Notes: generated from the letters alone by a model not told the origin. A stretch of 64,000 nt of DNA from an uncultured Endomicrobiia bacterium (GCA_938074745.1 CALJEJ010000006.1:18043-82042); one strand, 5' to 3'; shown: positions 1,204 through 40,440, counted from the first letter of the stretch. Numbers and translations: made by a program.

Positions 1204-1274
1204 ATATTTTTTGAACCGAAATACGCTGTTTTAACATCTAATTTAACGGAGTAGTTCAAAATCTGGAGGTGAAA

Positions 1275-7681: not shown

Positions 7682-9819
7682 TATCAATAAATATTAATTT
7701 TATTTCAGTTTTATTTGTATTACTTTTTCTAATAACTACAGTATATTGGATTACAAGACCAACTTTTAAATTTAAATATTGGAAGTTATTTATTTTAAGA
7801 AGTATATTGGCGATATTACTGTTAACTTTATTATTTCAACTGAGATATAACATTGGTAATGTTAAAACAAAACCACAATTGAAACTATTGGTGGACACTT
7901 CATACAGTATGAAATTTAATAACAGAATAAACAAAGTCAAAGAATTTCTTAAGAAATATTTAGATGCATTAACCAAAGAAATGGATACTAGTATATACAT
8001 ATTTGATGAAAAACTGCACAAGGTGGATTCTATACACCAAATAACAATTTCTGCTAAGGGTACAAAAATTAATTCAGTTATAGAAGAAATTTTATATATG
8101 AGTAAAGACAATACAAACCAGACAATATTGTTATTTTCTGACGGTAAAAATGCTACTTTAGATTTGCCAGTTATAGAAAAAGAAAATGTTAGTATTATTC
8201 CAATAATATTTGAAGAGGATAATTTTAAAGATGTTTCAATATCTAATTTAAAATATAGTAGTTTAGGATTTAAAGATGTTAACTATGAAGTTGTTGTTAA
8301 ACTATTATGTTTTGGATATGAAAATCGTAATTGCAAAATTTTTTTAACTGACGTTAACTCTAAAACTACAGTTTGTGAGAAAGAAATTGTGTTGAAAGAA
8401 GGTGAAAACGAAGTGAAATTAAATTTTATCCCTAAAGAAATTGGGAAGGTTAAATATAAACTGGCAGTCCAACATTTTCCACAAGAAATAACTTATGAAA
8501 ATAACGAGGTAAATATTAATGTAGAAATAAAGAAAAATAAAATAAGAATATTATATCTTTGTGGCCAACCGTCACCTGAATATTATTTTTTACGCAACTT
8601 AATAAAAAATGATCCTAATCTTGATTTAGTATCCTTTGTAATTTTACGTAATCCTGAATCCGTAGTTATAGTTCCTGAAGATGATTTAGCATTAATTCCG
8701 TTTCCTACCTATGACATTTTTGTAAAAGAACTTTTTAATTATGATTTAGTTATATTCGAAAATTTTTCTTATAGAAAATTTGCAATACCAGTTGGGTACT
8801 TAGAGAATATTCGTCAGTTTGTTCTTTCAGGCGGCGGATTTATAATGATTGGTGGGGATAAATCGTTTTCGTTAGGTGGGTATAAATTTACACCTATTGA
8901 AGAAATTTTACCTGTGAAACTTGTTGAGATAGAAAAATTTGTTACTATGGAGTATCGTCCTGAAATAGTTAATTTTAATGACAAAATGTTAAAAGTTGTA
9001 GATGACGCTGAATTAAATAAACTAATTTGGAAAACAATACCACCACTAAACAATTATCAAACTGTAGAAAGACAACAAAATTCTACTGTTTTAATGACAT
9101 ATCGCAATGTTCCTATAATGTCTTATTGGGTTAAAGGTAAAGGTAGAGTGTTTGCTTGTGGAACAAATAGTACTTATAGATGGGTTTTAGGAAATATTCT
9201 TTCTACTGAATATGATTATAAAAAAGCATATGTTCAATTTTGGAAAAATGTAATCTATTGGTGTAGTGGTGCCGAAGATATAAAAAGTTTGTACATAGTT
9301 ACAGACAGTGACGAATATTTAATAAATGAGGTAGTAAAATTTAAATTATATTATAACATTGCTGACACTGAAATAACACAGTTGCCTGAAGTATATATTA
9401 TTCAACCAGATATGAGTAAGAAAAAATTAGAATTAAAAAAAATATCTTTAGGAACATATACAGGCGAATTTGTTGGCTCAATGATAGGTGAATATAGTAT
9501 AGTTGCTGTAGTAAATAAGTACAAAGATACTCTAAAAGATATAAAAAAAATTGTAGTGAAACAAATAAACATTAACAATCTACAAGAAATTGCTGATTTA
9601 AAATTAGACAAAGAATATTTAACAAAAATTGCTAAGTTGACCAACAACGAACCTGTTCTTTCTACAAAGTTTAATATACAAAAATTTATTTCAGATGTTA
9701 AAAATAGACATAAAAAATATTTTGTTAATTTTGTAGAAGTATACCAAAAACCGTTTCTAGGAATATTATTTATAGGATTGTTCTTAATTGAGATATTTTT
9801 AGGGAAATTTATGAAATGA
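7678..9819 (+). CDS. Membrane protein with vWA domain plus a glutamine-amidotransferase-like (ThuA/DUF1355-type) domain and a C-terminal TM anchor
   Basis: N-terminal TM helices; MIDAS DxSxS (KLLVDTSYSMKF). A later segment reads DLVIFENFSYRKFAIPVGYLENIRQFVLSGGGFIMIGGDKSFSLGGY. The C-terminal hydrophobic helix is FLGILFIGLFLIEIF. ATGA overlaps occur at both ends. Confidence 0.6.
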   Translation: MISININFISVLFVLLFLITTVYWITRPTFKFKYWKLFILRSILAILLLTLLFQLRYNIGNVKTKPQLKLLVDTSYSMKFNNRINKVKEFLKKYLDALTKEMDTSIYIFDEKLHKVDSIHQITISAKGTKINSVIEEILYMSKDNTNQTILLFSDGKNATLDLPVIEKENVSIIPIIFEEDNFKDVSISNLKYSSLGFKDVNYEVVVKLLCFGYENRNCKIFLTDVNSKTTVCEKEIVLKEGENEVKLNFIPKEIGKVKYKLAVQHFPQEITYENNEVNINVEIKKNKIRILYLCGQPSPEYYFLRNLIKNDPNLDLVSFVILRNPESVVIVPEDDLALIPFPTYDIFVKELFNYDLVIFENFSYRKFAIPVGYLENIRQFVLSGGGFIMIGGDKSFSLGGYKFTPIEEILPVKLVEIEKFVTMEYRPEIVNFNDKMLKVVDDAELNKLIWKTIPPLNNYQTVERQQNSTVLMTYRNVPIMSYWVKGKGRVFACGTNSTYRWVLGNILSTEYDYKKAYVQFWKNVIYWCSGAEDIKSLYIVTDSDEYLINEVVKFKLYYNIADTEITQLPEVYIIQPDMSKKKLELKKISLGTYTGEFVGSMIGEYSIVAVVNKYKDTLKDIKKIVVKQININNLQEIADLKLDKEYLTKIAKLTNNEPVLSTKFNIQKFISDVKNRHKKYFVNFVEVYQKPFLGILFIGLFLIEIFLGKFMK

Positions 9820-11897
9820 AAAGAGTTGTACTGTTTATTTTTATAATGAGTGTTTTTATATTTTTAATATACACAGTTTCTCCATCAGTTAATAGTGGTG
9901 ACAGTGGTGAATTTATCACTACTTCAATCACTTTAGGTATTGCACATAGTCCTGGTTATCCGTTGTATTCCTTGGTAGGGAAAATTTTTAGTTATATAAT
10001 TCCATTTGGCAACTATGCGTATAGGATAAATTTGATGAATACAGTTTTTGTAATCTTTGTCATAGTAATATTATTTTCTTTTGCAAATAATAGGAATATT
10101 TCAAGTAATGTTTTGGATATAATAAATATTCTTTCCACAATAGGTGTTTTGATATTTTCAAAATCTTTCTGGCGTAACTCTGTGCAAACCGAAGTGTTCA
10201 TATTAAATGTATTGTTTGTAGTATTAATAATCTTTATTTTGTTCTTACCAATTAAATTCGTAAAAAAATGGTGTTTAATATCATTTCTTTTTGGTATTTC
10301 TTTAGGAAACCACCATACAATAGTTTTTCTTTTGCCTGGGTTGGTATATTTATTTTTCTCTTCAAAGTCAGAGTTAACAAATTTATGGAAAGATATTTTT
10401 TTGTTTATAATCTTTTTCGTGATAGGTATAAGTGTATATACTATTCTCCCTTTAAGGTCACAAAAAAATCCCGGTCTTGACTGGGGTAACACTGAAAAAA
10501 TTGTAAATTTGTACCGTGTAATAACAAGGAAAGATTATGGTACATTCCAACTTACGGTAGAAAAACCTTTGCCACGAAATTTTGTTAATATAGTTCAACA
10601 AGTAAAACGATATATAAAACATACCTTAAATGATATTCCTTTAGCTATTGTGATTCTATGTATTTTAGGAATAGTTATAGTTTATAATGAAGATAAAAAT
10701 AAATGTTTTGCCTTAAGTACAACATTATTTCTTTGCGGGATTGGTTTTTTTATTTTAAGTAATCTTCCTTTTGAACCTATTCACGATGGAATTTTGGAAC
10801 GGTTTTATATCTTCCCCAATACGATAGTATGTATTTTTACGTTGTTATTTATAACTTCTAAAAAAAATTTTTTTTCTACTAAATTAAGAAAAGTTTTTTT
10901 AACTATAGTTTTGCTATTGTGTTTTGTGTGGAATATAACAAAAAATTATCCCTTTTGCAATTTAAGAAGTTATTACTTAAACTATGATTATGGAATGAAC
11001 ATTTTACGAACCATAGTTCCTAATGGGATATTGTTTATGGATGGTGGAGATGATACTTTTTATACCTTAGCATATTTACAATTTGCTGAAGGACGACGAA
11101 AAGATATTAGTTTACACGATCGTGGTGGTGTAGTGTTTAAAAATATTTATGGGGAAGATTTTAGACAACTCACTAAGGAAGAAAAAGAAATCAGAAGACA
11201 ACAAATAGAATCAAGTTTCTTATCGCGCAGGACAGTTTATTATTCTACTTTTAACAAAAATATTTTACCAAAAGCAACTCTTTTTCCTGTTGGAGCGTTG
11301 TACAAAGCTGTGCCAAAAGATACACGTGAAAAAATATTTCCTCACTACAGTTTTGAGTTTTATTCGTTAAGAAGTGTATATCAAGAATATGACGACTACC
11401 GTAGCAAAGCTCTTTGTCCTATATATGATTTTATTGAAGCTACAAATATTGAACCTATACAGACCAAAATTGATTTGTTAAAATACACATACCTCAGATG
11501 GCCAGAAGTGGATTGGTTAAAAAATAATGTTAGTATAGAATTGCATAATCTTGGATATAAAATGTTCAACGAAGGTGATTATAACATAACAGAAAAAATT
11601 TATAAATTTTTAATTTATATCAACCCTAAAGATATTTACGCATTACTTAACTTAGGTGTAACATATGAACGGTTAGGGAAGCTAGATTTAGCAGAACAAA
11701 CTTATAATACAGCATCTAAAATTGATCCAACAAATCCAAATACATATTATAATTTAGCAGTGCTCTACTGGAAAAAAAATGATTGGGATAATGTAATAAA
11801 ATATTTTAACAAAGTATTACAGTTACAGCCAGATAATAAAGAAGTAAAAAATTTTTTATTAAAAGCCGAAATTGAGAAAAATAAGTTAAATAAATGA
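9816..11897 (+). CDS. DUF2723 (TMEM260-like, GT-C fold protein O-mannosyltransferase-like) membrane protein with C-terminal TPR repeats, paralog 1
   Basis: Multi-pass N-terminal domain with the DUF2723/TMEM260 signatures GDSGEF...GIAHSPGYPLY and LPLRSQKNPGLDW...TRKDYGTF. The C-terminus carries TPR repeats (YYNLAVLYWKKNDWDNVIKYFNKVLQLQPDN). Confidence 0.7.
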   Translation: MKRVVLFIFIMSVFIFLIYTVSPSVNSGDSGEFITTSITLGIAHSPGYPLYSLVGKIFSYIIPFGNYAYRINLMNTVFVIFVIVILFSFANNRNISSNVLDIINILSTIGVLIFSKSFWRNSVQTEVFILNVLFVVLIIFILFLPIKFVKKWCLISFLFGISLGNHHTIVFLLPGLVYLFFSSKSELTNLWKDIFLFIIFFVIGISVYTILPLRSQKNPGLDWGNTEKIVNLYRVITRKDYGTFQLTVEKPLPRNFVNIVQQVKRYIKHTLNDIPLAIVILCILGIVIVYNEDKNKCFALSTTLFLCGIGFFILSNLPFEPIHDGILERFYIFPNTIVCIFTLLFITSKKNFFSTKLRKVFLTIVLLLCFVWNITKNYPFCNLRSYYLNYDYGMNILRTIVPNGILFMDGGDDTFYTLAYLQFAEGRRKDISLHDRGGVVFKNIYGEDFRQLTKEEKEIRRQQIESSFLSRRTVYYSTFNKNILPKATLFPVGALYKAVPKDTREKIFPHYSFEFYSLRSVYQEYDDYRSKALCPIYDFIEATNIEPIQTKIDLLKYTYLRWPEVDWLKNNVSIELHNLGYKMFNEGDYNITEKIYKFLIYINPKDIYALLNLGVTYERLGKLDLAEQTYNTASKIDPTNPNTYYNLAVLYWKKNDWDNVIKYFNKVLQLQPDNKEVKNFLLKAEIEKNKLNK

Positions 11898-13945
11898 AAA
11901 TTGAAAGTGTAATATTGTTAATTGCATTTATAACTAACATTTTTCTTATTGCGCCGACAGTAGGTGTTGGTGATACTGCAGAACTTGCCGGCGCAGCAGT
12001 AAATTATGGGATTGCACATTCGCCTGGGTATCCGTTGTTCTGTAATGTGTATAAAATATTTTCTGTAATCATACCGTTTGCTGAAAAAGGGTATAGATTA
12101 AATATAACATCTGCAATATTGGGATATTTAAGTATCTACATAATATGGAAGATAATTATTCATATCACACAAAATCGCATCTTGGGAATTATAGGAATTG
12201 TATTATTCTTTTCTATTGATACTGTGGTAAAACAAAACCAGATTAGCGAAGTGTTTGCATTAAATAATTTTATTATTGCAATACTGACTTATTTTTTAGA
12301 AGTCTCAAAATTTTCTGTTGAAAAAAAGTTTTATATCGTAATGTTTTTATTAGGGTTGGGGTTAGGGAATCAACATATTATAATATTTTTTATTCCAGCA
12401 GTTATTCTGTGGTTTTTAATAAAAGGTAAGATTTTTAGTTATATACGTTTACAATATAGACATAAAACATTTAATACGATACTTTTTGGTGTGATATTTT
12501 TTCTGTTAGGATTGAGTATATATTTATATGTCCCGTTAAGGTCACTTCAACAACCTCTTTATGATTGGGAAGACCCTGAAACTTTTGACAGGTTTATTTT
12601 TCTGTTTACTCGTGGTCGGTATGGTACATTTAGTTTAGCACAGGGTGGGAAGTTAAGCATAACCTTTTTAAAATTTCTCTATGGGATAAAACTGTTTTTT
12701 TACATTTTAGGTTGGTATGTCACTATTTTTTTTCTTGTGGGAGTAGTGTTGTTGCTTTTTCAATTTGTGAACAAAAAAGTAAAATTTTTAGAAACAAAAT
12801 TGTTTTGTTTAACAGCGACATATTTTTTAGGTCCGTGGATAATTACAATTTCAGGATTAAATGTTCCTACACCACATACAGTTTACATTTTAGAACGGTT
12901 GATATTTTCGTCTACAATTTTTGTGGTAATGTTCATTACAGTTTCATTGTATGAGATTGCTAACAGAAAATTGATAAATTATTCTATTATGTGTTTTTTA
13001 TCTTATTTTGTAGTAATGAATTTTTTAACCAATTTTAGCAGGAACGACTTTTTTTTGTATGATTATATTTCAAATTTCTTTAGAAATATTCCTTATAATA
13101 GTCTAGTGTTTTCAGACAAAGCAGACGAGTCAGAGTTCGGGTTCGCTTATTTTCAAAGAATTTTAGGCTTAAGGAAAGATGTAGAATTTATTGACTGCAA
13201 CGCTTCAGTTTCACGTAGTATTTATGGTGTAGAATATTATCGTATCTGGGGTAAACCAAGGTTGGAAATAAGAACTGCAGTAGAAACTAAAATAATAAAT
13301 TCTGTAACTAAACCGGTGTTTTATAATACACTTCTTCCAGAACAAACAGGAATAAAAAAATACAAGTTTGGTCTTTTGTATAGTACAAACCAGAGGAAAG
13401 AAAAGATTTATGATGAGTATTTTGTATTTCGTGAAATGAATATACTACAACCACGAGTTTTAGGATTGTATTTGACATATCTAAATTCTTTAGCACAGTA
13501 TTTCCTTGAGTTAGCACAGCAACAAAGAGAATTTGTTTTCAAAGCAAAAGATAAATTTTTTGAATTGTTTTTAATTACTAAAGATATAAAATATATGCTT
13601 TACATACCATATTATTTTTTTTCAATTGGTGAACTAAAAAGTGCACAAGAAGAATATATTAAATTGTTAAAATATCCAATGGATAAAGAAAATGCTAAAG
13701 AAATTATGAATAATATAGGTGTAGTTTATGAAAATCAAGGTGAATTTTATGAAGCAGAGAAATGGTATAAAAAAGTTTTAGAATTAGATCCCGAGTTTGA
13801 AAAAGCATATTATAACCTTGCAGTAGTATACTGGAAAATAGGACGTTACAAAGATGCAATAAAAATGTTTACAAAAGTTGTTCAACTGAACCCACAAAAT
13901 GTTGAAGCAAAAAAGTATTTGGTAGTGTTAAAACAAAAAATTTAA
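11894..13945 (+). CDS. DUF2723 (TMEM260-like GT-C) membrane protein with C-terminal TPR repeats, paralog 2
   Basis: GDTAEL...GIAHSPGYPLF; VPLRSLQQPLYDWEDPE...TRGRYGTFSL. The C-terminal TPR is YYNLAVVYWKIGRYKDAIKMFTKVVQLNPQN. The start overlaps the paralog 1 stop. Confidence 0.7.
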   Translation: MKIESVILLIAFITNIFLIAPTVGVGDTAELAGAAVNYGIAHSPGYPLFCNVYKIFSVIIPFAEKGYRLNITSAILGYLSIYIIWKIIIHITQNRILGIIGIVLFFSIDTVVKQNQISEVFALNNFIIAILTYFLEVSKFSVEKKFYIVMFLLGLGLGNQHIIIFFIPAVILWFLIKGKIFSYIRLQYRHKTFNTILFGVIFFLLGLSIYLYVPLRSLQQPLYDWEDPETFDRFIFLFTRGRYGTFSLAQGGKLSITFLKFLYGIKLFFYILGWYVTIFFLVGVVLLLFQFVNKKVKFLETKLFCLTATYFLGPWIITISGLNVPTPHTVYILERLIFSSTIFVVMFITVSLYEIANRKLINYSIMCFLSYFVVMNFLTNFSRNDFFLYDYISNFFRNIPYNSLVFSDKADESEFGFAYFQRILGLRKDVEFIDCNASVSRSIYGVEYYRIWGKPRLEIRTAVETKIINSVTKPVFYNTLLPEQTGIKKYKFGLLYSTNQRKEKIYDEYFVFREMNILQPRVLGLYLTYLNSLAQYFLELAQQQREFVFKAKDKFFELFLITKDIKYMLYIPYYFFSIGELKSAQEEYIKLLKYPMDKENAKEIMNNIGVVYENQGEFYEAEKWYKKVLELDPEFEKAYYNLAVVYWKIGRYKDAIKMFTKVVQLNPQNVEAKKYLVVLKQKI

Positions 13946-13950
13946 TTCCA

Positions 13951-16149
13951 ATGATATATTTAATTGTGTTCTTGAACATCTTTATAGTATATTTATGGAC
14001 AATTTTCCCAACAATAGCAGCGTACCGTGATTCAGCTGAGATGTGTTGTGTTGGTAAACTTTTAGGTATAGCGCATCCTCCAGGTTATCCATTATACACT
14101 TTGCTGATAAACATATTTTGGAAAATCCTACCTTTAGGAAATCTTGCCTACAGGTTTAACATTTTTTCAGCAATAGTCTCTGCATTAACTGGAATGTTAC
14201 TTTTTTATCTGTGTCGTAAAATACAGCGAAAGAGTATCTCTATGGTTACGATTTCGTTAATCGACAATATAATTATATACTTTTTTGTATTAATATTTGC
14301 TTTTGGTTATCTACAGTGGTATTTATCTTTAGTTTCAGAAATGTATACTTTTAATGTCCTATTTGGAATAGTTGTTTTGATATTAGCATATAGATATTTT
14401 TTTGAGACAGAGAAAAAATTAGTTTACATCTTATTTTTTATTTTTGGTTTAGGGTTAGGGAATAGGTTGGATTTAATATTATTTTTTCCAATAATATTTT
14501 TTGTATTTTGGGATTACATAAAAAAATCTCGTTATAAGATTAAAGAACTCATATTTTTATGTTTTGTGATTTTTTTAGGTTTGACAGTGTATTTATATCT
14601 TCCATTACGTTCTTCACAAAAACCGTTGTTAGACTGGAATCATCCTGCAGAACTTTCTCGTTTCTGGAGTTCATTGACAAGAAAAACACATGGTTCTACA
14701 TTGGATATGTTATCTTTGAGTTATCGTCCAGCAGAAAACTTTTTAGCAGGAATAAAATTATATTTCAAACATATAATTGAAAATATCACTATTTTTGGCT
14801 TGATAATAGTTTTATTAGGAAGCAAAAATTTAGTAAAACAAAATTTTGTATTTTTTGTTATTACATTATTATGCTGGTTGATAAGTTGTGTATGGTTCAT
14901 TTACAAAGCCAACATGCCACCAAATCCCCATGCAATGGCAATTTTAGAAGCACATTTTTTACTCCCAAATTTGATAATATTTCTATGGTTATTTTATGGT
15001 ATTCTTGAGATTACAAAAAAATTTTTGTCTAAATTTTACATAAAATTTGTTTTAATATTAGTTATGGTATTGTGTATAATGTATAACCTAAAAAATAACA
15101 TCTACAAATTAAATAAGAGGAACCATTTTTATGCATATGACTATACAACAAATTTATTTAGAAGTGTTCCAGATGATAGTTTAGTGCTTATAAAAGAAGA
15201 TGTTCAATTATTTTCTTGTTGGTATAGAAAATATATAGAAAAATTTAGGCCGAAAGTTTATGTTATAGCATCTGGTCTTGCAGGAGCAGAATGGTATGTG
15301 TCTATGTTTCAGAGATATCTTTCAGAAATAGGTGCGACTAAACAGATATTTTTTTGCCGTTTGGATGATAACTTAGGTTGGGATAAGTTTATTTCAGAAA
15401 ATAAGAAGATTAGTAATAAGATATTCGTTACCCACAATGTAGAGTTTGGTCAACTTAAAAATTATAAACTTTTTCCTGTAGGGTTATGTTCCGAGATATG
15501 TAGTTTAGAAGAATATCCCTCCACAAAACATAACTACAAAATACTTTCAGAGGTTTTACAAGAGGAAATTTATATTTATAGAAATGAATATCTTTACGAT
15601 TTAGACAAAGAATTTTTTTCTTCTGATATTGTAGAAGAATACAGCAAAGCACATAGTATCACCGGAGATTATTTAAGAAACCAACAGAATTTTGTTTCGT
15701 GTATTAAAGAATATAAATCATCAATACTAATGAATCCAGATTTTCCAGTCAACTATTTTGATTTAGGATATGTATATTTCAGTATGAAAAACTACAATCT
15801 TGCAGAAAAGTTTTATACATATGCAGTAAGAAAGTATGAAAACTATCTTTTATTGGCTCAGAAGTATAATGCATTACCCGATGTAATAAAAAATTATAAA
15901 GAACAAACAGCGAATGCATATTTACACTTAGGAGTAGTATCAGAAAGATTAGGTAAACTTGATTTTTCTGTTGAATGTTATAATTCTGCTTTGGGACACA
16001 ACCCTAATTTTGCTGATGCATATTATAATTTAGGTGTTGTATACTGGCATAAAAAAGATTGGGAAAAAGTAAGATATTATTTTAACCAAACTTTAAAAAT
16101 AAATCCTAACCATTCGTTAGCAAAATTTTATCTTGAAAAACTTCAATGA
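13951..16149 (+). CDS. DUF2723 (TMEM260-like GT-C) membrane protein with C-terminal TPR repeats, paralog 3 (divergent N-terminal motif)
   Basis: YRDSAEM...GIAHPPGYPLY (the HPPGYP form); LPLRSSQKPLLDWNHPAE...TRKTHGST. The C-terminal TPR is YYNLGVVYWHKKDWEKVRYYFNQTLKINPNH. Confidence 0.7.
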   Translation: MIYLIVFLNIFIVYLWTIFPTIAAYRDSAEMCCVGKLLGIAHPPGYPLYTLLINIFWKILPLGNLAYRFNIFSAIVSALTGMLLFYLCRKIQRKSISMVTISLIDNIIIYFFVLIFAFGYLQWYLSLVSEMYTFNVLFGIVVLILAYRYFFETEKKLVYILFFIFGLGLGNRLDLILFFPIIFFVFWDYIKKSRYKIKELIFLCFVIFLGLTVYLYLPLRSSQKPLLDWNHPAELSRFWSSLTRKTHGSTLDMLSLSYRPAENFLAGIKLYFKHIIENITIFGLIIVLLGSKNLVKQNFVFFVITLLCWLISCVWFIYKANMPPNPHAMAILEAHFLLPNLIIFLWLFYGILEITKKFLSKFYIKFVLILVMVLCIMYNLKNNIYKLNKRNHFYAYDYTTNLFRSVPDDSLVLIKEDVQLFSCWYRKYIEKFRPKVYVIASGLAGAEWYVSMFQRYLSEIGATKQIFFCRLDDNLGWDKFISENKKISNKIFVTHNVEFGQLKNYKLFPVGLCSEICSLEEYPSTKHNYKILSEVLQEEIYIYRNEYLYDLDKEFFSSDIVEEYSKAHSITGDYLRNQQNFVSCIKEYKSSILMNPDFPVNYFDLGYVYFSMKNYNLAEKFYTYAVRKYENYLLLAQKYNALPDVIKNYKEQTANAYLHLGVVSERLGKLDFSVECYNSALGHNPNFADAYYNLGVVYWHKKDWEKVRYYFNQTLKINPNHSLAKFYLEKLQ

Positions 16150-17786
16150 AGAAGATTTTGTCGTATTATGGTTTAGTTGTTGTGCTTATAACAATACATT
16201 TTTTATTGGGTATTGATACAATAAAACATTATTCACCAACTTATGACGAACATGTCCATCTTGTTAGTGGATATTCTTATTGGAAGACAGGAGGATATTT
16301 TCTTAACATTTACGACCATCCGCCTGTGATAAAACTTTTTGCCAGTATACCGTTGTTATTTATGAAACCAATATTGCCTATAAATCATCCGACATATGTT
16401 AGCCATAAACAGTATTCTTTTGCAGATATATTTTTTTATCATAACATTGTTGATGCTGAAAAAATGTTGAATTCTGCTCGGTTGATGATGTTGGTTATTT
16501 CGTGTTTACTTGGTTATACGATATATTTTTGGAGTAAGCAAATATACGGAAGAACAACAGCTGTTATAATTTTGTTATTCTATGTTTTTTCATCAAATTT
16601 TATTGCTCACGGTATATTGGTTACAACCGATGTTGGATTAAGTTTTTTTTATTTTTTAAGTATGTATTATTTTTGTTTAATGCTTAAGAAAGGAAATTTT
16701 ACAGACACAATTTTATGCGGTATTTTTTCAGGTCTCGCATTAGGAAGTAAATTTTCTGCTGTAATAATTTTTCCAGTATACTTTTTAATATATTTTTTAG
16801 TTCGTAAAAAAATAAATATAAAAAATTTAGGTTTCCATTTTGTTGTGTTAGGTGTTATGACAATTTTTACTATATCAGTTATTTACAAATTTGATTTAGG
16901 GTTGTATATTGACGGGATAAAACATATAATGAAAGAAATGCAACGAGGTAGGTCCGTGTTTCTTTGTGGAAACTATTCTACTACAGGGTTCATTTATTAT
17001 TTTCTTGTTGTTTTTTTAATAAAAACTCCAATATTATTTTTGGTAATTTTGTTATTACTACCATTTTTTTATAGAAAAAAAGATGTTGTTACAAACACAG
17101 TGTTGATTACCGCAACAATTGTATATTTTATTTCAGCATCAGTATCAAGAATTCAGTTAGGGTTAAGACATATCCTGCCAATATATCCGTTCCTTTTTGT
17201 TTTATCTGGCGATGTGATAGATTATATTATATCTGACAAAAATGTTTTTAAAAAAAGTATTATTTTATGTATTGCGATAGGTTCATATATTTATCCCTGT
17301 ATAAAACTTCATCCGTGGCATTTGAGTTATTGTAACGAACTGTTTGGTGGTGCAAAAAATGGATATAAATATCTTACTGATTCAAATATTGACTGGGGAC
17401 AAGGGTTGAAACAGTTAGGTATTTGGTTGAACAAAAATTTTTTTTCACAATACAAGGATAACCCGTTCTACGGGATTTATTTTTCATACTTTGGTGTTGG
17501 CGACCCACATTATTATGGAATAAGATACAGACCTGTAGGATTTATCAGTAATTTAGACTACAAGGAACGTCCAGGAGATAAAATTGAATTCTTGCCTGAC
17601 GAAAAAATATTGTTTGCTATTTCTGTAACAAACTTGCAAGCAACATATTATAGAGACAAAAATGTTTTCTCGTTTATAAAAAAATATCAACCTCTAAAAG
17701 TTATTGCAGAATCTATTTTTGTTTACGATTTAACAGATAAACCTCAAGTAATCAAAAAAATTAAAGAAATTATAAATGAATTATAA
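16146..17786 (+). CDS. GT-C fold glycosyltransferase, family 39/PMT_2 (ArnT/protein-O-mannosyltransferase-like)
   Basis: A 546-aa polytopic protein. The first periplasmic loop carries the catalytic-type DE motif in the typical context (YDEHVHLVSGYSYWKTGGYFLNIYDHPPVIKLF). It contains more than 10 predicted TM helices. Confidence 0.6.
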   Translation: MKKILSYYGLVVVLITIHFLLGIDTIKHYSPTYDEHVHLVSGYSYWKTGGYFLNIYDHPPVIKLFASIPLLFMKPILPINHPTYVSHKQYSFADIFFYHNIVDAEKMLNSARLMMLVISCLLGYTIYFWSKQIYGRTTAVIILLFYVFSSNFIAHGILVTTDVGLSFFYFLSMYYFCLMLKKGNFTDTILCGIFSGLALGSKFSAVIIFPVYFLIYFLVRKKINIKNLGFHFVVLGVMTIFTISVIYKFDLGLYIDGIKHIMKEMQRGRSVFLCGNYSTTGFIYYFLVVFLIKTPILFLVILLLLPFFYRKKDVVTNTVLITATIVYFISASVSRIQLGLRHILPIYPFLFVLSGDVIDYIISDKNVFKKSIILCIAIGSYIYPCIKLHPWHLSYCNELFGGAKNGYKYLTDSNIDWGQGLKQLGIWLNKNFFSQYKDNPFYGIYFSYFGVGDPHYYGIRYRPVGFISNLDYKERPGDKIEFLPDEKILFAISVTNLQATYYRDKNVFSFIKKYQPLKVIAESIFVYDLTDKPQVIKKIKEIINEL

Positions 17787-17825
17787 AAACGTAACTTTTT
17801 TCAAAAAAATGGAGGTGTACAAAAT

Positions 17826-18947
17826 ATGACAAAAAAAGTTTTAATTTTAACAGCGAGTTATGGTACAGGACATATCTCTGCTGCAAAATCTATAGATAAA
17901 GCATTGAAACAGTTATATTCAGATGTAGAGACAAAAATTGTGGATTTTTTATATCTTGATAAGAAACCTGAAAAGTTAACATTATTTCAAAAGATATATA
18001 ATTTCTCTATGGAAAAACCGAACCTGTGGGATGTTTTTTTCCATTTAACAAATAATAAATTTGCTGTTGCTATATTGAAATGGACGATTTTAATAAAAAA
18101 TTATCACAAAATGAAAAAGATATTTTTAGAATATAATCCAGACGTAATTATATCAACCCATATGTATTGGAATTTTATAATTGAGAAACATAAGAAAGAA
18201 AAAAATAATATTTTTTCTATTAAGAAAACTTTGAAGTATATCTGCGTAATTACAGATTCTTTTATGATACACAAATCCTGGATAAGTAAAGCTGTAGATT
18301 ATTACTTTGTAATTGATGAAGATACAAAACAAGTTGTGGTTAATATGGGTATCAAAAATATAAAAGTTACAGGTTTTCCTGTGACAGTTGAATTATCTCA
18401 AAAAATTGATAAAAGAAAAATAATATCTGAGTTAGGGTTAAAAGAAAATCTTACTACTATTTTAGTAACAATAGGTCTTGGAGCGTTGCAACGTTTCTTA
18501 GATATTATAGATTACTTAAGAATGCAAGAAAACGGTTTTCAATTGATAATAATTACTGGTAAATATGAACAAATCTACAAGAAATTGTTGGCTAAACATT
18601 ATAAAATTCCTACTGTGATAATTGGTTGGACGGACCGTATGGCTGATTTTATTCGTGTCAGTGATTTGGTAATTTGTAAAGGAGGTGGAGCAATAGTTTC
18701 TGAGTCGTTGAACGCATTTAAACCGGTTTTAATACCGACATTTGTCCCCGGCCAAGAACAAGGAAATGTATTTATAATAAAAAAATATCAATTAGGCTTT
18801 TATGCTGAAGAAAAAGAAGAGGTTTATTCAATCTTAAACCAAATAATTACTAAACAAATAGATTTAGAAAAGTATGCCCATAATATAGAAAAATATGTTA
18901 AAAAAGATTCTGCAATAAATATTGCCAGATTTATTTATAACTTGTAA
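17826..18947 (+). CDS. GT28 family glycosyltransferase (MGDG synthase / UgtP / MurG-like)
   Basis: N-terminus KKVLILTASYGTGHISAAKSI (MGDG_synth-type G-rich loop) and a C-terminal domain with ICKGGGAIVSESL. SD GGAGGTG upstream. Confidence 0.6.
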   Translation: MTKKVLILTASYGTGHISAAKSIDKALKQLYSDVETKIVDFLYLDKKPEKLTLFQKIYNFSMEKPNLWDVFFHLTNNKFAVAILKWTILIKNYHKMKKIFLEYNPDVIISTHMYWNFIIEKHKKEKNNIFSIKKTLKYICVITDSFMIHKSWISKAVDYYFVIDEDTKQVVVNMGIKNIKVTGFPVTVELSQKIDKRKIISELGLKENLTTILVTIGLGALQRFLDIIDYLRMQENGFQLIIITGKYEQIYKKLLAKHYKIPTVIIGWTDRMADFIRVSDLVICKGGGAIVSESLNAFKPVLIPTFVPGQEQGNVFIIKKYQLGFYAEEKEEVYSILNQIITKQIDLEKYAHNIEKYVKKDSAINIARFIYNL

Positions 18948-18966: not shown

Positions 18967-21900
18967 ATGAATGTTAACGAGTATATAAAAAAAGCAAAAT
19001 TATATAGAACAACATTTTTAATTGTTCGCTATACAGTAACCACACTGAATACTATAGTAGGATGTTTTATTCTAAGTGCGTTGGTTGACGAAATTTTCCC
19101 TTTGCCGATAATCGTATTTCATATATACTGGTTTTTTATTCTCGCTTTAATAACAATTTTTTTTATAAATTTAGTATTACAACTTATCAATCTATACAAA
19201 AATCCTAAACAATATTTACAAAATGAATTAAATAAATATCCATTGTTAGATACCAAAGACAGTATAATAACTTCAGCAGAGTTAGAACAAAAACTTGAAT
19301 ATAAAGATATAAACTTTTCTAAAGAATTAGCAGAAAAGTATATAGAAAACATAATTTCAAAATTGTCCACTTTAGATTTAAAAAAAATTGTTGGCTTAAA
19401 TAAAGTATTAAAAGTTGTACCTATTAACGTTGTTTTAATATTGTTAATAATTACTCTTTACGCATTTCCACCTTTTATTCTTAAAGAGAGCGTATACAAA
19501 ATACTTTTTACTCGTAAACCTGAAATTTTGGGTTTAACGATCTATCCTAAAAATATAAAAGTTCCACTAGGGAAAAGTTGTGAAATAAAAGTTCTCGTTG
19601 ATAAACTTTATGAGTTTTATATTCCAATATTATATTTGAAATTTTACGGTACTCATCAATGGATAAGGGTAAATTTTACGAAGTATGAAATTATTTCTAA
19701 TAGAAAAATTTATATATATAAAATTGAAAATGTGGAGAACAAAATATTTTATAAGATACATTTTCGCGGGATAAGTTCAAAAGTGTATGTAATAGAACCT
19801 ATCGTTTATCCTGCAGTATCCAAACTTTCAATTTGGGTAGAACCACCGAAATATACTTCTTTAAAACCAATAGAACTACAAAGTTTTAATGAGGTTAAAT
19901 ATTTATTTGGTAGTAAAATAAAATTTGATGGCGAAACTAATAAAGAAATTGCAAAGATAAAATTGATAACTTCAAAAGGACAAGAAATAAAAATAAATGT
20001 AAAAAACAAAAATATGTTTTCTGGTGAATTCGTCGCTATAGAAAATATGGATATATGGTTTGATATTTTAGATACGGAAAATTTAAAAAATATAGATGTT
20101 GTAAAATATAGAATTAATGTTATAAAAGACCAACATCCTGAAATAAAAATTATTTCCCCTGAAGATGAAATTATAGTAGCTCAGAATAGTAAAATTACAT
20201 TAATTTACTCTGCAAAAGATGATATTGGGATCTCACAAATAAATTTGAATTATTACATAGAGAATAAAAAGTATAATAAACAAGTTTGTATAAAAAAATA
20301 TAGCTCTAATATTTGCGAAATTATAGATGAATATACATTTGATTTATCAAATTTACCCTTAAATTTTGGTGATGTAATTATTTACTATTTAACTGTTTAT
20401 GATAACGACACAGTTTCAGGTCCTAAGTCAAACATTAGTGTGAAACATAAAATTGAAATTTTTAGTTTTGAAAAACAACATCAAATGATTGAAAGACAAG
20501 TTAACGAAGTTATAGATAAAATGTTAGATTATTTATCACGAGAAATTGAATTTAAAGAACAGTTGGATAGATTAACCACTACCACAATAGATATCTCTGA
20601 AATAGATAAACTGATAAACAAAAAACAGTTGTTGAACAAAGAGTTTGAACAGTTCACTAATCAAATGAACGATATCTTATCACAGATGGCTTATGACCCT
20701 TACACTTCAGTAGATACATATATAGAGTTTAAAAGTTTTTTAACAAATATGGAAAATATTTCACAATATAGTAATCCTATGTTAATAGATAGATTAAGAA
20801 ATAAAGATATTAATAAAGCACAAACTATACAACAGGAAATTGTTGATACTTTAGAACGATTATGCTCTTTAACTACACAAATTATGAAAAAACAGAATAT
20901 GGAAAATATTGCAAATATTGCAAATGAGACATATACTTCATTAGAGCAATTGATCAATGAACTTAAAAATACTGATACAAAAATTTCTTCAGAACAACTG
21001 ACAAAATTAAATAATTTACTTTCAGAGATTGAAGAAAAACTAAAAAAAATAGCGAATATGTTACAAAACCAGCCACAATCTTTACCTGAGGAATTTATTA
21101 ATCGTAGAGATGTAAAAAATATAGATTTAGTTTCTCCACAAGAAATGTTACAAAAATTATATTCTGCAATATCTATGGGAGATATACATTCTGCATTAAA
21201 ATATGCACAACAAATGTTAACTCAGTTAGAAAGTATAATGAATATTCTTGAACAAGCAAATTCTGATATACTATCTTCAACTAGTAGTAGTTTAAAAAAA
21301 GAACTTGAAAGGTTAATGTCCGACCTTGATAATTTAATTAAATCAGAAGAAGACATTTATTCAAAAACTAAAAATTTGTTTGATTACAAACTTAACGAAT
21401 TATTAAAGAAACAAGAATCTATATTGTCAGAATTGATAAAAGATATTAACATAATAATTTCAAAAATAAATTATGTCAATTCTATAGAGGAATTGAAAAA
21501 AATAAATAATTATCCACAGTATCTATCAACAAGCCAACAGGTGTTAAAAAAACTATCAGATATTTCTTCAGAAATACATAAGAAAAAATTAATTCAAACA
21601 AAAGTGTGGTTAAAAGAAGCAATACAACTTTGGGAGATGAACTATAATATCGTTTCGCTATTAGATAAACAACTTTATTCTATAATAATAAAAGAGACAG
21701 AAGAAATATTAAACTTGATGAAAAAATTATACGATAAATTTGACTTTGAACCAAAGATCAAATTATCTCCAGAAGCTGTCAACCAAAACAACAATCTTAT
21801 TCTTGAACAACAAAAAGTTTCTAAAGCAACACAGAAATTTTATTTAGAACTAAAAAATTTTGGTAAAAAAAGTTTTATGATAACCACACAAGATTTATTT

Positions 21901-22275
21901 AATGTTAAAACAGCAAATAATAAAATGGATCAAACGATAATTTCTTTAGAGAACCAAGATTTTGATTTGGCATTAGAAAACGAAAATACAGCTATAAACT
22001 TACTTTCAGAATTACGTAATAAGTTTTCTGATATAACTCAACAGTTACAACAAATGGAACAATTGTTAGGCAAACCGATGGGTAGCAAAATACAATATAA
22101 ATCATTACCATCTGGCCAATACGGCGTTTTGTTCAGTCGAGTAAAGTTGCCTTCAGTTAAAGATTATATTCCACCAAAAGAACTACGAGAAGATATAATA
22201 AGATCGTTAAGTGAAAAATATCCTATAGAATATAATAAAATAATCCAACGGTATTATAAGGAACTGTTAAAATGA
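18967..22275 (+). CDS. Large membrane-anchored protein of unknown function (N-terminal TM hairpin, beta-rich middle region, roughly 550-aa C-terminal coiled coil)
   Basis: 1102 aa. Two N-terminal TM helices, residues about 180-520 rich in beta-strand/Ig-like patterns, then a long heptad-rich region to the C-terminus. No catalytic motif recognised. Confidence 0.5.
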   Translation: MNVNEYIKKAKLYRTTFLIVRYTVTTLNTIVGCFILSALVDEIFPLPIIVFHIYWFFILALITIFFINLVLQLINLYKNPKQYLQNELNKYPLLDTKDSIITSAELEQKLEYKDINFSKELAEKYIENIISKLSTLDLKKIVGLNKVLKVVPINVVLILLIITLYAFPPFILKESVYKILFTRKPEILGLTIYPKNIKVPLGKSCEIKVLVDKLYEFYIPILYLKFYGTHQWIRVNFTKYEIISNRKIYIYKIENVENKIFYKIHFRGISSKVYVIEPIVYPAVSKLSIWVEPPKYTSLKPIELQSFNEVKYLFGSKIKFDGETNKEIAKIKLITSKGQEIKINVKNKNMFSGEFVAIENMDIWFDILDTENLKNIDVVKYRINVIKDQHPEIKIISPEDEIIVAQNSKITLIYSAKDDIGISQINLNYYIENKKYNKQVCIKKYSSNICEIIDEYTFDLSNLPLNFGDVIIYYLTVYDNDTVSGPKSNISVKHKIEIFSFEKQHQMIERQVNEVIDKMLDYLSREIEFKEQLDRLTTTTIDISEIDKLINKKQLLNKEFEQFTNQMNDILSQMAYDPYTSVDTYIEFKSFLTNMENISQYSNPMLIDRLRNKDINKAQTIQQEIVDTLERLCSLTTQIMKKQNMENIANIANETYTSLEQLINELKNTDTKISSEQLTKLNNLLSEIEEKLKKIANMLQNQPQSLPEEFINRRDVKNIDLVSPQEMLQKLYSAISMGDIHSALKYAQQMLTQLESIMNILEQANSDILSSTSSSLKKELERLMSDLDNLIKSEEDIYSKTKNLFDYKLNELLKKQESILSELIKDINIIISKINYVNSIEELKKINNYPQYLSTSQQVLKKLSDISSEIHKKKLIQTKVWLKEAIQLWEMNYNIVSLLDKQLYSIIIKETEEILNLMKKLYDKFDFEPKIKLSPEAVNQNNNLILEQQKVSKATQKFYLELKNFGKKSFMITTQDLFNVKTANNKMDQTIISLENQDFDLALENENTAINLLSELRNKFSDITQQLQQMEQLLGKPMGSKIQYKSLPSGQYGVLFSRVKLPSVKDYIPPKELREDIIRSLSEKYPIEYNKIIQRYYKELLK

Positions 22276-23876
22276 GCTCAATATATAAAATTATTTTTTT
22301 ATTTCTATATTTATGGGTTTATAATATTGTTGCTGGTGAAATTAAAAACGAAATAAATACTGTAATATCTTTACTTGAATCAGGAAAATTTTCTGTTGTT
22401 GAAGAAAAAATAAAAAATATAGAAGAGCCAGAAGTAAAATATTATCTTACTGCACTCTATTATTTATTTACAGGCGACTATGAACAAGCAGAAAAATTTA
22501 TAAATAAAATTTCTACTACCACAAAAATTGATGAAGAAGAAATAAAATTTTATCGTGAATATATATCTAAATTAAATAAAATTATTTCTACCTACAATAA
22601 GTTTGAATCAGAACATTTTGTTGTATTTCTTAAAGGTAAAGACATTATCCTAAAAGATATTTTATTGTCAAAAATGGAACAAATATATAAGAAATATAGT
22701 AAACTTTTAGACTATGTGTTAGATACTAAAGTTCGCATTGAGGTATATAACACGAAGACAGAATTTATGTTTTGTTCTACACTTGGGGAAAAGATTGTTG
22801 AGAAGGTTGGTGTAGTTGGCATTTGTAAATTTAATCGTATAATGATTTTATCGCCAGAAAATTTGCCTTTAGGATATCGTTGGATTGACACTTTAGCACA
22901 TGAGTATATACATTTTATCTTAAACAGAATTACAGAATTTAATTTACCTTTATATCTTCATGAAGGGATAGCAAGATATTTTGATACTTTATACAGGTCT
23001 ACATATCCTTTATGTTTTACTGCAGGTAATTTGAGTTTGTTAGTTAATGCTAAAAAAAACTCTTCTATAATACCTTTTCATAACTTACGAGGTTCATTAG
23101 TATATCTTGATTCTCAAGAACAAGTTGAGCAAGCTTTTGTACAACTTGCAACTTTTATAGACTATTTGATAAAAACTTTTGGAGAAGAGAAGTTAATAAA
23201 ATTTATTACGAGTTTCAAATATAACAAAGATGACAAAGAAAATTATAAAAAAATTTATAATTCAGAATTTGAAATTTTATATTCTTCATGGTTGGATTTT
23301 ATTGATGAAAAAGAAAGTATAGTAAATCAATTTCCTGGAGCAAAACCTGATATAAAAATTGTTCAAAAGGAAGATGAAGCTAATCTTATTGGATTAACTA
23401 TAAAAGGATATATAGATTTATCTGAAAAATATGCATTGAAAAAAAATTATAAAATGGCATTACATCAATGTTATAAAGCGTTAGAAATAGAACCGTATAA
23501 TCCATTGTTAATGGTGAAAACAGCAAGATATCTTATGTTACAAAATAAGTATGAGGAGTCAGAAAATATTTTGTTAAAATGTATAAAAGCCAACCCCAAT
23601 TATGTTACTGGCTATGAGTTATTAATAAAATTATATTATGAAACAGGGATGTATGAAAAAGCCAAAGAGTTCTATAACACAATTTTAGAAATTAACCCAT
23701 TTAATTATGAAATAAGAAAACTTGTTGCAGAAATGTTTGCTGATTTAAAAAACATAAGAGAGGCTTTAGAAGAATATAAAATAGTACATATATTAAACCC
23801 TCAAGATAAAGAAACAATAGAAATTATCAATTCATTAGAAAACTATATGAAGTATAAATCAGAAATATCAAAATAA
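22272..23876 (+). CDS. Signal-anchored TPR-repeat zinc metallopeptidase-like protein (gluzincin, peptidase MA-like)
   Basis: HEXXH (LAHEYIHFIL) followed 22 residues later by the third-ligand motif HEGIARYF (EGxAxY-like). N-terminal hydrophobic anchor. The C-terminal half consists of TPR repeats, the last similar to those of the DUF2723 paralogs. The start overlaps the upstream stop (ATGA). Confidence 0.55.
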   Translation: MSSIYKIIFLFLYLWVYNIVAGEIKNEINTVISLLESGKFSVVEEKIKNIEEPEVKYYLTALYYLFTGDYEQAEKFINKISTTTKIDEEEIKFYREYISKLNKIISTYNKFESEHFVVFLKGKDIILKDILLSKMEQIYKKYSKLLDYVLDTKVRIEVYNTKTEFMFCSTLGEKIVEKVGVVGICKFNRIMILSPENLPLGYRWIDTLAHEYIHFILNRITEFNLPLYLHEGIARYFDTLYRSTYPLCFTAGNLSLLVNAKKNSSIIPFHNLRGSLVYLDSQEQVEQAFVQLATFIDYLIKTFGEEKLIKFITSFKYNKDDKENYKKIYNSEFEILYSSWLDFIDEKESIVNQFPGAKPDIKIVQKEDEANLIGLTIKGYIDLSEKYALKKNYKMALHQCYKALEIEPYNPLLMVKTARYLMLQNKYEESENILLKCIKANPNYVTGYELLIKLYYETGMYEKAKEFYNTILEINPFNYEIRKLVAEMFADLKNIREALEEYKIVHILNPQDKETIEIINSLENYMKYKSEISK

Positions 23877-23885
23877 TATAAATTT

Positions 23886-25367
23886 ATGGATAAAGAAGTA
23901 TATCTTCAACTAAGGGAAAAATATAAAAAGATAAAACCAGATAGAGTAAAAGAAAATATATCAGAATATTCACTTAAGGAACAAACAATTGCAGAAATAT
24001 GGTATAAATCTCTATTTGATAGACGTAATTTAACTTCTGTTGATGGAAGAAAAGTAATTATTGTTTCTGTTGGAGAGTATAATACTGTTTCTGTTCCAGA
24101 TTTTGTCAATGCTAAGATAATAGTTGATGGTAAAGAGTATAGTGGTGACGTAGAAGTCCATAAAAACAGATCAGACTGGTTTAAACATAAACACCATAAG
24201 AATTCTCTATATAAAAATGTTATACTCCATGTGTTTTACAATAACGATACTAGAACTCCAGTAAAAGAAGATATTATTGAACTATGTTTAAAAGATAGAA
24301 TTAATCCAGAATTTTTTGAAGAAGACAGCGAGTTATTTTATTCTTCTAAAGAAAGTCTCTGTGGTAAATCTATACAAATTAAAGATTATAATTTGTTAGA
24401 ACAACTGATTTTATCTGCAGCTGAAGCTAGGTTGAATATTAAATCAGAACAATTTTTTTGTTGGTTCAAAACTAAAACAAAAGAAGAACAGATGTTATAT
24501 GAACGTATCTGTGAAACATTTGGATATTCAAACAATAGAGATAATTTTTTGTTGATATCAAAAATTGCACCTATAAAGAAAATTAGAAAAATTGTTAAAC
24601 GATACAGACTTAAAGAACAAAAAATTATTGTTGATACGATATTTTTTTGTGTTAGTGGATTGTTAAATAGAAAAGATGTTTTAGAACATTTACCACAATA
24701 TTATATTAGTCTTAAAACATTGTGGGAAAAAGAGATAAAAAAATATTTTAAAAAAACAATAGATTCGTCAAGATGGAGATATTACAAGACTCGTCCTGTA
24801 AACTATCCTGAACGTAGAATTGCTGCATTGTCAATGTTTGTTTCTAAAATTATTAATGTTGAACTACAAAAACTTTTGTTAGGATTAATTAAACTCAAAG
24901 ATGAAAAAGATATTCTAGTTCATATAAAAAATTTTTTATACCAGCCGCCAGAAGGTTATTTTGCTAAACATTGCAGGTTTGGCGGGAAAGAATTTTCTCG
25001 CGAATATCCTCTTTGGGGTATGGAAAAAGTTAGTTCATTGTTAGCAAATGTTATATTCCCATATCTTGTTTATAAATCAAAACAAACTAAAGATGAACAG
25101 TTATATAAAAAAGTAATAAAAATATATACTTTACTAGATATAAAAGAGAAAAACAGTATTGCAGAAAAATTTCTCTCATCTATTATACTTTATCCAGAAT
25201 ATAGAAAATATTTTTTGTCAAAAAACATTTTTATTCAAGGCTTACTACAGATATATAAAGATTTTTGTGAACCTAATAGAGGTATATGTAAAAATTGTTT
25301 TCTGCCTGAAATATTAAAATATGAAATTAATCAAGAGGATAAATCAATAAAATTTTTAGAGTTGTAA
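23886..25367 (+). CDS. Hypothetical protein (493 aa), family not recognised (possibly DUF2851-like; low confidence)
   Basis: Long ORF with ATG start, co-directional and closely spaced with the upstream block. No diagnostic catalytic motif seen. Cys pairs CGKS and CKNCF lie near the ends. Confidence 0.4.
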   Translation: MDKEVYLQLREKYKKIKPDRVKENISEYSLKEQTIAEIWYKSLFDRRNLTSVDGRKVIIVSVGEYNTVSVPDFVNAKIIVDGKEYSGDVEVHKNRSDWFKHKHHKNSLYKNVILHVFYNNDTRTPVKEDIIELCLKDRINPEFFEEDSELFYSSKESLCGKSIQIKDYNLLEQLILSAAEARLNIKSEQFFCWFKTKTKEEQMLYERICETFGYSNNRDNFLLISKIAPIKKIRKIVKRYRLKEQKIIVDTIFFCVSGLLNRKDVLEHLPQYYISLKTLWEKEIKKYFKKTIDSSRWRYYKTRPVNYPERRIAALSMFVSKIINVELQKLLLGLIKLKDEKDILVHIKNFLYQPPEGYFAKHCRFGGKEFSREYPLWGMEKVSSLLANVIFPYLVYKSKQTKDEQLYKKVIKIYTLLDIKEKNSIAEKFLSSIILYPEYRKYFLSKNIFIQGLLQIYKDFCEPNRGICKNCFLPEILKYEINQEDKSIKFLEL

Positions 25368-28318: not shown

Positions 28319-28325
28319 AATATCT

Positions 28326-29060: not shown

Positions 29061-29080
29061 ATATTTATTTGAGGTTATAT

Positions 29081-40408: not shown

Positions 40409-40440
40409 TATAATTAAATTTGCTGCCAATTAATTCTTAT

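Follow-up and report, generated by a model that had tools for sequence, protein, structure and literature searches.

The oxygen-tolerance protein BatD, which is membrane anchored and has extracytoplasmic beta-sandwich domains, is encoded at the distal end of MoxR/von Willebrand factor A (vWA) operons, and the alphaproteobacterial low-complexity transmembrane (TM) proteins of TIGR02302 overlap the DUF4175 family, with DUF4175 content and the same general layout. Here we analyzed a gene in a 64,000-nucleotide stretch of DNA from an uncultured Endomicrobiia bacterium (GCA_938074745.1 CALJEJ010000006.1:18043-82042; the window) that encodes a 1102-residue DUF4175 protein, of which BatD may be a functional analogue. 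The closest described operons are those of the Bat (Bacteroides aerotolerance)/MoxR-MRP type (Rhizobium leguminosarum RL3499-RL3502 and Borrelia bb0170-bb0176), with which the operon in the window has in common DUF58, BatA_N+vWA and tetratricopeptide repeat (TPR) partners and an envelope location. The BatA-type vWA domain of Borrelia BB0173 is periplasmic (PMC5700661), membrane integrity and cell morphology phenotypes are attributed to RL3499-RL3502 (as cited in PMC3893208 and PMC5700661), and a related MoxR(MRP) operon of Riemerella has been linked to stress tolerance (PMC11834572). Elsewhere, a TIGR02302 protein is a target of CenR, of the division/envelope regulon, in Rhodobacter (PMC9275681), and a DUF4175 match covers the N-terminal two-TM part of AdvA, an essential division protein of Acinetobacter baumannii (PMC7481262). 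TMEM260, a member of the DUF2723 family, O-mannosylates B-strands of immunoglobulin (Ig)-like IPT domains, and recognition is thought to occur via its TPR domain (PMC10214176).

Analysis of the window and of related loci showed that, in widely separated lineages, DUF4175 is tightly linked, and often translationally coupled, to a gene set comprising DUF58, BatA-vWA, DUF4159, a vWA/GATase1-like protein and a gluzincin-TPR protein, usually together with MoxR. We regard both the family identity of the protein and its genetic linkage to Bat-like genes as close to certain. The protein itself is routine; what is new is the partner set for DUF4175 and the clade-specific union of a Bat-like module with GT-C glycosyltransferases.

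The ORF list and translation showed an ATG-started open reading frame at 18967..22275 on the plus strand, stop included, in agreement with an initial annotation of the window, and also bore out the overlap of its stop with the next gene: the ATGA at 22272-22275 joins the TGA stop to the ATG of a Peptidase_MA_2/TPR gene. That annotation had assigned the product to no recognisable family, which did not hold, while remarking that such proteins are often annotated only as DUFs, which proved apt. Pfam PF13779 (DUF4175) matched at 62.6 bits (E 2.5e-17), well above the gathering cut-off of 27.3. The match falls in two stretches, the best of which aligns aa 285-435 with profile positions 184-327 of 825, and the precomputed PF13779 label is present on most orthologues too. 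The closest relatives are found in Endomicrobia/Elusimicrobiota metagenome-assembled genomes (the GC content of the window is ~27%); full-length Endomicrobia orthologues are 40-47% identical, and identity to DUF4175 members outside Elusimicrobiota is only 15-25%. A family profile made from the protein and 24 relatives was run against 1.84 billion representatives, and returned 5,065 cluster representatives at E<=1e-30 and 19,563 at E<=1e-3, the weak tail of which may contain helical, low-complexity proteins of other kinds, matched by composition. The best 150 matches align end to end and are ~1,100 aa in length. Sampled members included Bacteroidota/Chitinophagales "hypothetical proteins" and Gemmatimonadota proteins labelled "DUF4175 family protein" by NCBI. 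A homology search seeded with P0022 gave only 6 matches, its candidate selection probably having been swamped by low-complexity words. The protein is an ordinary member of a very large, functionally uncharacterized family.

Scanning Pfam at E<=0.01 detected only DUF4175 and a sub-threshold Big_7 match, leaving the BatD model unmatched, and no NCBIfam family, including TIGR02302, was matched at E<=0.01, which places the protein outside that subfamily. There was likewise no match to SMC or EzrA, and none to the anti-phage defence models of PADLOC-DB for the protein or five operon partners. No confident match to a characterized family with an unrelated role was thus found, DUF4175 itself being uncharacterized.

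The operon in the window, whose genes all lie on the plus strand and mostly overlap by 4 bp, is composed as follows.

4018-4893, plus strand: DUF58 protein, no TM helix (Pfam; TM scan)
4890-6923, plus strand: BatA_N+vWA protein (BatA+VWA_2), three TM helices (Pfam; TM scan)
6920-7681, plus strand: DUF4159 protein with signal or anchor (Pfam; TM scan)
7678-9819, plus strand: vWA+GATase1-like protein of 713 aa, three TM helices (Pfam; TM scan)
9816-11897, 11894-13945 and 13951-16149, plus strand: three TMEM260-like (DUF2723, PF11028) GT-C genes with TPRs (Pfam/NCBIfam)
16146-17786, plus strand: PMT_2 GT-C gene (Pfam/NCBIfam)
17826-18947, plus strand: MGDG-synthase/GT28 gene, GT-B (Pfam/NCBIfam)
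18967..22275, plus strand: whole gene for the DUF4175-family protein (PF13779 match, full-length orthologues, family profile search)
22272..23876, plus strand: secreted Peptidase_MA_2 protein (HEYIH at aa 210) with TPRs, translationally coupled to the DUF4175 gene (Pfam; ATGA overlap)

The DUF58 and BatA_N+vWA genes, which define a Bat-like module, share operon, strand and 4-bp overlaps with the DUF4175 gene, and all partners except DUF58 are predicted to be envelope located. Classical Bat operons as published contain BatB/BatC/BatD/BatE, and DUF4175 is not reported from them; the operon in the window, by comparison, adds DUF4159, the vWA/GATase1-like protein, the gluzincin-TPR protein and DUF4175, and lacks MoxR. 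The MoxR ATPase of the Bat/MoxR-MRP operons is instead held in common with the operons of DUF4175 relatives. The clade-specific glycosyltransferase insert spans 9816..18947 (plus strand) and contains four GT-C genes and one GT-B gene. The DUF4175 gene had initially been described as embedded in a glycosyltransferase block, which is literally true; more accurately, the block is itself embedded in the Bat-like operon to which the DUF4175 gene belongs. All three DUF2723 copies retain the N-terminal acidic motif (GDSGEF, GDTAEL and RDSAEM). One Pfam clan, the class-I glutamine-amidotransferase-like clan (PMC4702930), includes both DUF4159 (6920-7681) and the GATase1-like domain of the vWA protein of 713 aa, and the module therefore holds two divergent copies of this fold, one secreted and one membrane anchored.

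Nine Elusimicrobiota loci, with DUF4175 proteins of 27-47% identity, have the order BatA, DUF4159, vWA/GATase1, two to three DUF2723 genes, in some cases PMT_2, MGDG synthase, DUF4175 and PepMA/TPR. The most distant of them (L009, 27% identity) is without PMT_2 and MGDG synthase and still has three DUF2723 genes directly before DUF4175. DUF2723 genes accompany DUF4175 in all eight Elusimicrobia loci with upstream sequence. In one locus (L008, 5337-7910), the PMT_2 and MGDG-synthase frames form a single 857-aa open reading frame, which may be a fusion or an assembly/frameshift artefact.

Genome and metagenome collections were scanned with narrow alignments (A2 and A4), which biases the loci toward two clades. 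Outside Elusimicrobiota, a metagenome scan seeded from one clade, of Gemmatimonadota type, yielded 80 loci at 25-85% identity and GC 0.42-0.75. Of the 57 loci with >=1.5 kb of upstream sequence, at least 50 have BatA directly before DUF4175 on the same strand. Where >=8 kb was available (n=26), MoxR, DUF58, BatA and PepMA/TPR were each present in 25 loci, the C13-like protein X338 in 22, DUF4159 in 20 and the vWA/GATase1-like gene in 19. Individual clusters illustrate the same set: a lineage of 50% GC (L011) has MoxR-DUF58-BatA-(vWA/GATase1-like homologue)-DUF4175-like-DUF4159; L014 has DUF4159-DUF4175-like; L016 has vWA, X338, TPR/Peptidase_MA_2, two DUF4159 genes, MoxR, DUF58, BatA and DUF4175; and L017 has DUF4159-MoxR-DUF58-BatA-DUF4175. 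The peptidase of the window is homologous to that of L016 outside the TPRs (E 1.6e-11), with HExxH in both. DUF2723, PMT_2 and MGDG-synthase matches were found in none of the 80 Gemmatimonadota-type loci. The cluster in the window is a derived version, in which the local MoxR is missing and glycosyltransferase genes have been inserted, an insertion seen only in Elusimicrobiota. The initial annotation had linked the protein to both glycosylation and vWA machinery. Conserved gene order in Elusimicrobiota, in L011 and in the Gemmatimonadota-type loci upholds the second link, whereas the first, like co-occurrence with DUF2723, applies to the Elusimicrobia loci but not beyond, and is clade specific.

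Thus DUF4175, a family of thousands of members with no assigned function, is a near-obligate neighbour of BatA/vWA, DUF58, MoxR, DUF4159 and gluzincin-TPR genes in Gemmatimonadota-type genomes. This provides a concrete, testable partner set for the family and adds a large periplasmic component to operons of the MoxR(MRP)/Bat type.

The architecture of the protein was examined with an AlphaFold2 (AF2) model (25 sequences; mean pLDDT 82.4; pTM 0.51), a hydropathy scan and conservation within the family, which together suggest the following parts.

18967..19188, plus strand: K/R-rich N-terminus, predicted to be cytoplasmic, and TM helical hairpin, aa 1-74 (hydropathy; AF2 helices 3-43 and 48-78)
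19189..19404, plus strand: helical loop, predicted to be cytoplasmic, aa 75-146 (AF2 helices 80-142; conserved columns; topology from the positive-inside rule)
19405..19464, plus strand: third TM helix, aa 147-166 (hydropathy peak of 2.47 at aa 147-165; AF2 helix 144-166)
19519..20463, plus strand: three tandem Ig-like beta-sandwich domains, aa 185-499 (AF2 strands; Foldseek against PDB; sub-threshold Big_7; invariant columns)
20464..22062, plus strand: helical region, predicted stacked up-down four-helix bundles, aa 500-1032
22063..22167, plus strand: flexible or disordered linker, aa 1033-1067 (pLDDT <50 at 1041-1067)
22168..22272, plus strand: conserved C-terminal helical motif PPKELREDII..YP..YYKxLLK, aa 1068-1102 (conservation; two terminal AF2 helices)

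Three hydrophobic segments were detected by the hydropathy scan (~aa 28-51, 56-74 and 147-165), in place of the two N-terminal TM helices initially described; AF2 likewise gave three, and the third is kept in relatives, including the Gemmatimonadota model. With two TM helices only, the large domain would be cytoplasmic. Because a third follows the hairpin behind a K/R-rich N-terminus (5 K/R within the first 24 aa), aa 167-1102 would lie outside the cytoplasm, and the simplest topology that we infer is N-in, hairpin, cytoplasmic loop, third TM helix and an extracytoplasmic remainder. Within the loop at aa 75-146, D98, N102 and L121 are invariant in the family, with K149 close by. Compared with BatD, the protein has a different TM arrangement and a large helical-bundle region.

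A beta-rich, Ig-like middle region had also been anticipated, and AF2 strands spanning aa 190-498 support it, dividing into three domains at ~190-280, 281-385 and 386-499. When the predicted structure was searched against PDB with Foldseek, ~350 columns of the beta region matched three-Ig ectodomains with probability 1.00 and E values down to 4.7e-7; matches included DIP, NCAM, SIRP-alpha and KIT, along with macroglobulin-domain proteins. The Big_7 match lies in the third domain (aa 391-427) at 20.6 bits, below threshold. This domain also contains the family-invariant residues D388, P391, D418, D419, D479 and N480, in the motifs DD418-419 and DN(D)479-481. By analogy with bacterial Ig and cadherin-like domains, these acidic motifs probably form a Ca2+ site.

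The C-terminal half had been described as about 550 heptad-rich residues forming a very long coiled coil. It is indeed almost wholly helical in the AF2 model (aa 501-1032), but with helices of 20-99 residues separated by loops, the longest at aa 740-838, and their hydrophobic periodicity is best at 3.4-3.7 residues, the 99-residue helix peaking at 3.6-3.7. Fold searches with this half yielded four-helix-bundle matches. The model suggests a stack of generic four-helix bundles, distal to the membrane-proximal Ig-like domains, rather than one long heptad coiled coil. PDB sequence-profile matches to designed helical bundles, GCN4 and syntaxin were set aside as compositional, and matches to dynein and talin as generic helical similarity. 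In relatives the linker is enlarged to Gly/Gln-rich low-complexity sequence. The last 35 residues have the highest conservation of all regions within Endomicrobia (0.79), and an equivalent motif was found in Bacteroidota, Gemmatimonadota and other relatives, which have in common the signature "PP.(Y/L)....(Y)(Y/F)..L" and a Tyr, Tyr1096, that is invariant family-wide. We consider this motif (aa 1068-1102) a putative docking element. The AF2 model of a Gemmatimonadota protein of only ~20% identity (P0197) has the same order of elements, including the N-terminal hairpin and a disordered stretch at 965-1001, and the architecture is therefore a family trait. The protein thus has its length (~1,100 aa), its architecture and the invariant DD/DND and C-terminal Tyr motifs in common with other DUF4175 members, and differs from them in a helical half with less low-complexity Gly/Gln/charged sequence and in an operon without a local MoxR and with glycosyltransferases.

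These observations favour, by a modest degree of probability, a DUF4175 protein that is an inner-membrane-anchored, periplasm-projecting structural or scaffold subunit of a conserved Bat-like MoxR/DUF58/BatA-vWA/DUF4159/vWA-GATase1-like/PeptidaseMA-TPR envelope module. The mechanism we put forward more tentatively, its likelihood being even at best. The TM and cytoplasmic part of the protein would couple to the cytoplasmic DUF58 protein and, where present, to MoxR. The third Ig domain, which is acidic and probably binds Ca2+, could form with the helical bundles a platform on which BatA and the vWA/GATase1-like protein rest their periplasmic vWA (MIDAS) domains, and the C-terminal motif may be presented to a partner farther from the membrane, for example the TPR domain of the peptidase encoded by the next gene. 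In length, the ectodomain could in principle bridge much of the periplasm, if the three Ig domains contribute ~4 nm each and the bundles with the 99-residue helix ~15 nm. To judge from related MoxR(MRP)/DUF58/vWA operons, this module may contribute to envelope integrity and stress tolerance. Since GT-C protein O-glycosyltransferase genes have been acquired in Elusimicrobiota, the complex there, possibly including the DUF4175 Ig-like domains, may be glycosylated. The earlier suggestion of a periplasm-spanning scaffold or ruler is thus retained as to periplasmic location, once the third TM helix is counted, and unsupported as to a coiled-coil ruler, while its scaffold part stands as a proposal.

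Several points weigh against the scaffold reading. Bacteroidota-like relatives (L010, L012 and L015) do not adjoin Bat genes, and BatA is missing upstream in 5 of the 57 informative Gemmatimonadota-type loci; a DUF4175 protein can therefore be encoded independently. The metagenome locus sample is phylogenetically unbalanced, and the count from the profile search may be swollen by a compositional tail. In a tblastn search with the MoxR of L011, no MoxR was detected in the 64-kb window or in the flanks of L001-L009, so that either MoxR is encoded elsewhere or coupling to an ATPase may not belong to the model in this case. The periplasmic span is an arithmetic estimate, not a measurement, because the inter-domain geometry is uncertain (pTM 0.51). 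Finally, our literature searches retrieved no study of DUF4175 itself, only incidental mentions (AdvA and the Rhodobacter CenR regulon), and for no DUF4175 protein was a physical interaction, localization or phenotype found.

The same independence of DUF4175 in Bacteroidota-like genomes would fit a client with a function of its own, and an unlikely alternative is that the protein is folded, inserted or remodelled by a chaperone-like MoxR/DUF58/BatA machinery, in parallel with the action of NorQ/NorD on nitric-oxide reductase and of RavA/ViaA on respiratory complexes, its ectodomain serving a separate envelope function. In general, a dedicated client complex is the target of MoxR AAA+ proteins and their vWA adaptors (PMC3893208, PMC11834572), and in most loci DUF4175 comes last, behind MoxR-DUF58-BatA. 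However, Elusimicrobia without a local MoxR still retain DUF4175, tightly coupled to the other partners, and Pfam, NCBIfam and fold searches revealed no cofactor site or enzymatic domain in the protein. Genomics alone does not separate a client from a scaffold.

The clade-specific glycosyltransferases raise another, somewhat less probable explanation, namely, that in Elusimicrobia the DUF4175 Ig-like domains are the dedicated acceptor of the upstream TMEM260-like/TPR GT-C enzymes (and PMT_2). It is equally doubtful that O-glycosylation is needed for DUF4175 folding or interactions, in a bacterial counterpart of TMEM260 O-mannosylation. The three upstream genes match PF11028 and carry C-terminal TPRs, as in TMEM260/GT117, and the Ig-like domains of the 1102-aa protein are predicted to lie on the same side of the membrane. 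TMEM260 acts on Ig-like IPT B-strands (PMC10214176), and the paralogues in the window keep the acidic motif; DUF2723 genes are directly upstream throughout the phylum, L009 with its 27% identity included; and DUF4175 is the sole operon protein with recognisable Ig-like domains. Conservation of three Ser/Thr positions (T182, S306 and S397) is limited to the clade in which GT-C genes are adjacent. Most conserved Ser/Thr residues are, however, conserved family-wide, and Ser/Thr make up 10.5% of the Ig region, compared with 12.5-14.2% in clades without glycosyltransferases. With only three clade-specific Ser/Thr and no enrichment, the acceptor reading stays a speculation. In contrast to TMEM260 substrates, the Ig-like domains are not recognisable as IPT/TIG, with no match to these in Pfam, and only in Elusimicrobiota are the two associated. 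Given the absence of glycosyltransferase genes from all 80 other loci, glycosylation cannot be central to the DUF4175 family, and BatA, the vWA/GATase1-like protein or an unrelated molecule could just as well be the acceptor. We consider it improbable that TMEM260-type O-glycosylation has been fused to a Bat-like module with DUF4175 Ig domains as its dedicated acceptor. If true, the domain-specific O-mannosylation of IPT domains known from eukaryotes would have a bacterial counterpart encoded in an operon, the genes for enzyme and substrate lying side by side. A separate conjecture, to which we give similarly little credence, is that the vWA/GATase1-like, C13-like, gluzincin-TPR, DUF4159, MoxR, DUF58, BatA and DUF4175 proteins constitute an undescribed trans-envelope machine, with DUF4175 as its periplasmic strut. 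Whatever the acceptor, TMEM260-like glycosyltransferases beside an Ig-domain protein in Elusimicrobia offer a simple system for finding the targets of bacterial DUF2723 enzymes.

Neither a canonical ruler or tether made of a long coiled coil, such as an SMC- or EzrA-like rod, nor a periplasmic four-helix-bundle sensor with transmembrane signalling finds much support in the data above, and such a role is highly improbable. Least probable of all is a cell-division or chromosome-coordination protein like Acinetobacter AdvA: the N-terminal DUF4175 match of AdvA (PMC7481262), the TIGR02302 protein that is a CenR target (PMC9275681) and the presence of ScpA/ScpB and a dcw cluster 6-18 kb downstream in the window would fit it, but AdvA as described has only the short N-terminal membrane module in common with the 1102-aa protein (PMC7481262), for which reason the analogy was dropped as the primary explanation; Bat-like neighbours are not reported for AdvA, and the conserved neighbours of DUF4175 are Bat-like rather than division genes, the downstream housekeeping genes not being conserved neighbours beyond close relatives.

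Some further features of the loci were recorded. A ClpB gene (1269-3902) sits 115 bp upstream of DUF58, where other lineages have MoxR; ClpB was rejected as a MoxR substitute, being a housekeeping disaggregase separated by a 115-bp gap and lacking support. A truncated RarA/MgsA-like AAA+ gene on the minus strand runs off the left edge of the window. Promoter and terminator scans were at chance level (134 versus 143.6 expected and 4 versus 4.0 expected, respectively). The X338 protein of other lineages (L016, 671-1687) is secreted and ~338 aa long, and scored 20.5 bits against Peptidase_C13 (caspase fold), below the cut-off of 22.8; it retains His-Gly ("LIGHGS") but lacks Cys where the nucleophile would be expected ("NAASASG"), and a homologue is absent from the window and from the Elusimicrobia loci. 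Directly 3' of the Peptidase_MA_2/TPR gene is a DUF2851 gene (23886-25367; 226 bits, Pfam), followed by housekeeping genes; among the 9 related Elusimicrobia loci, 6 have it in the same position and a seventh (L005) has it one gene later, whereas the other clusters lack it. Past the housekeeping block are a 558-aa open reading frame (34481-36157) with no Pfam match at E<=1e-5 and a 743-aa protein (31738-33969) with weak HEAT/Arm repeat matches only. ScpA and ScpB are encoded at 28305-29737, and MraZ and MraW (RsmH), at 39974-41313, open the dcw cluster ~18 kb downstream.

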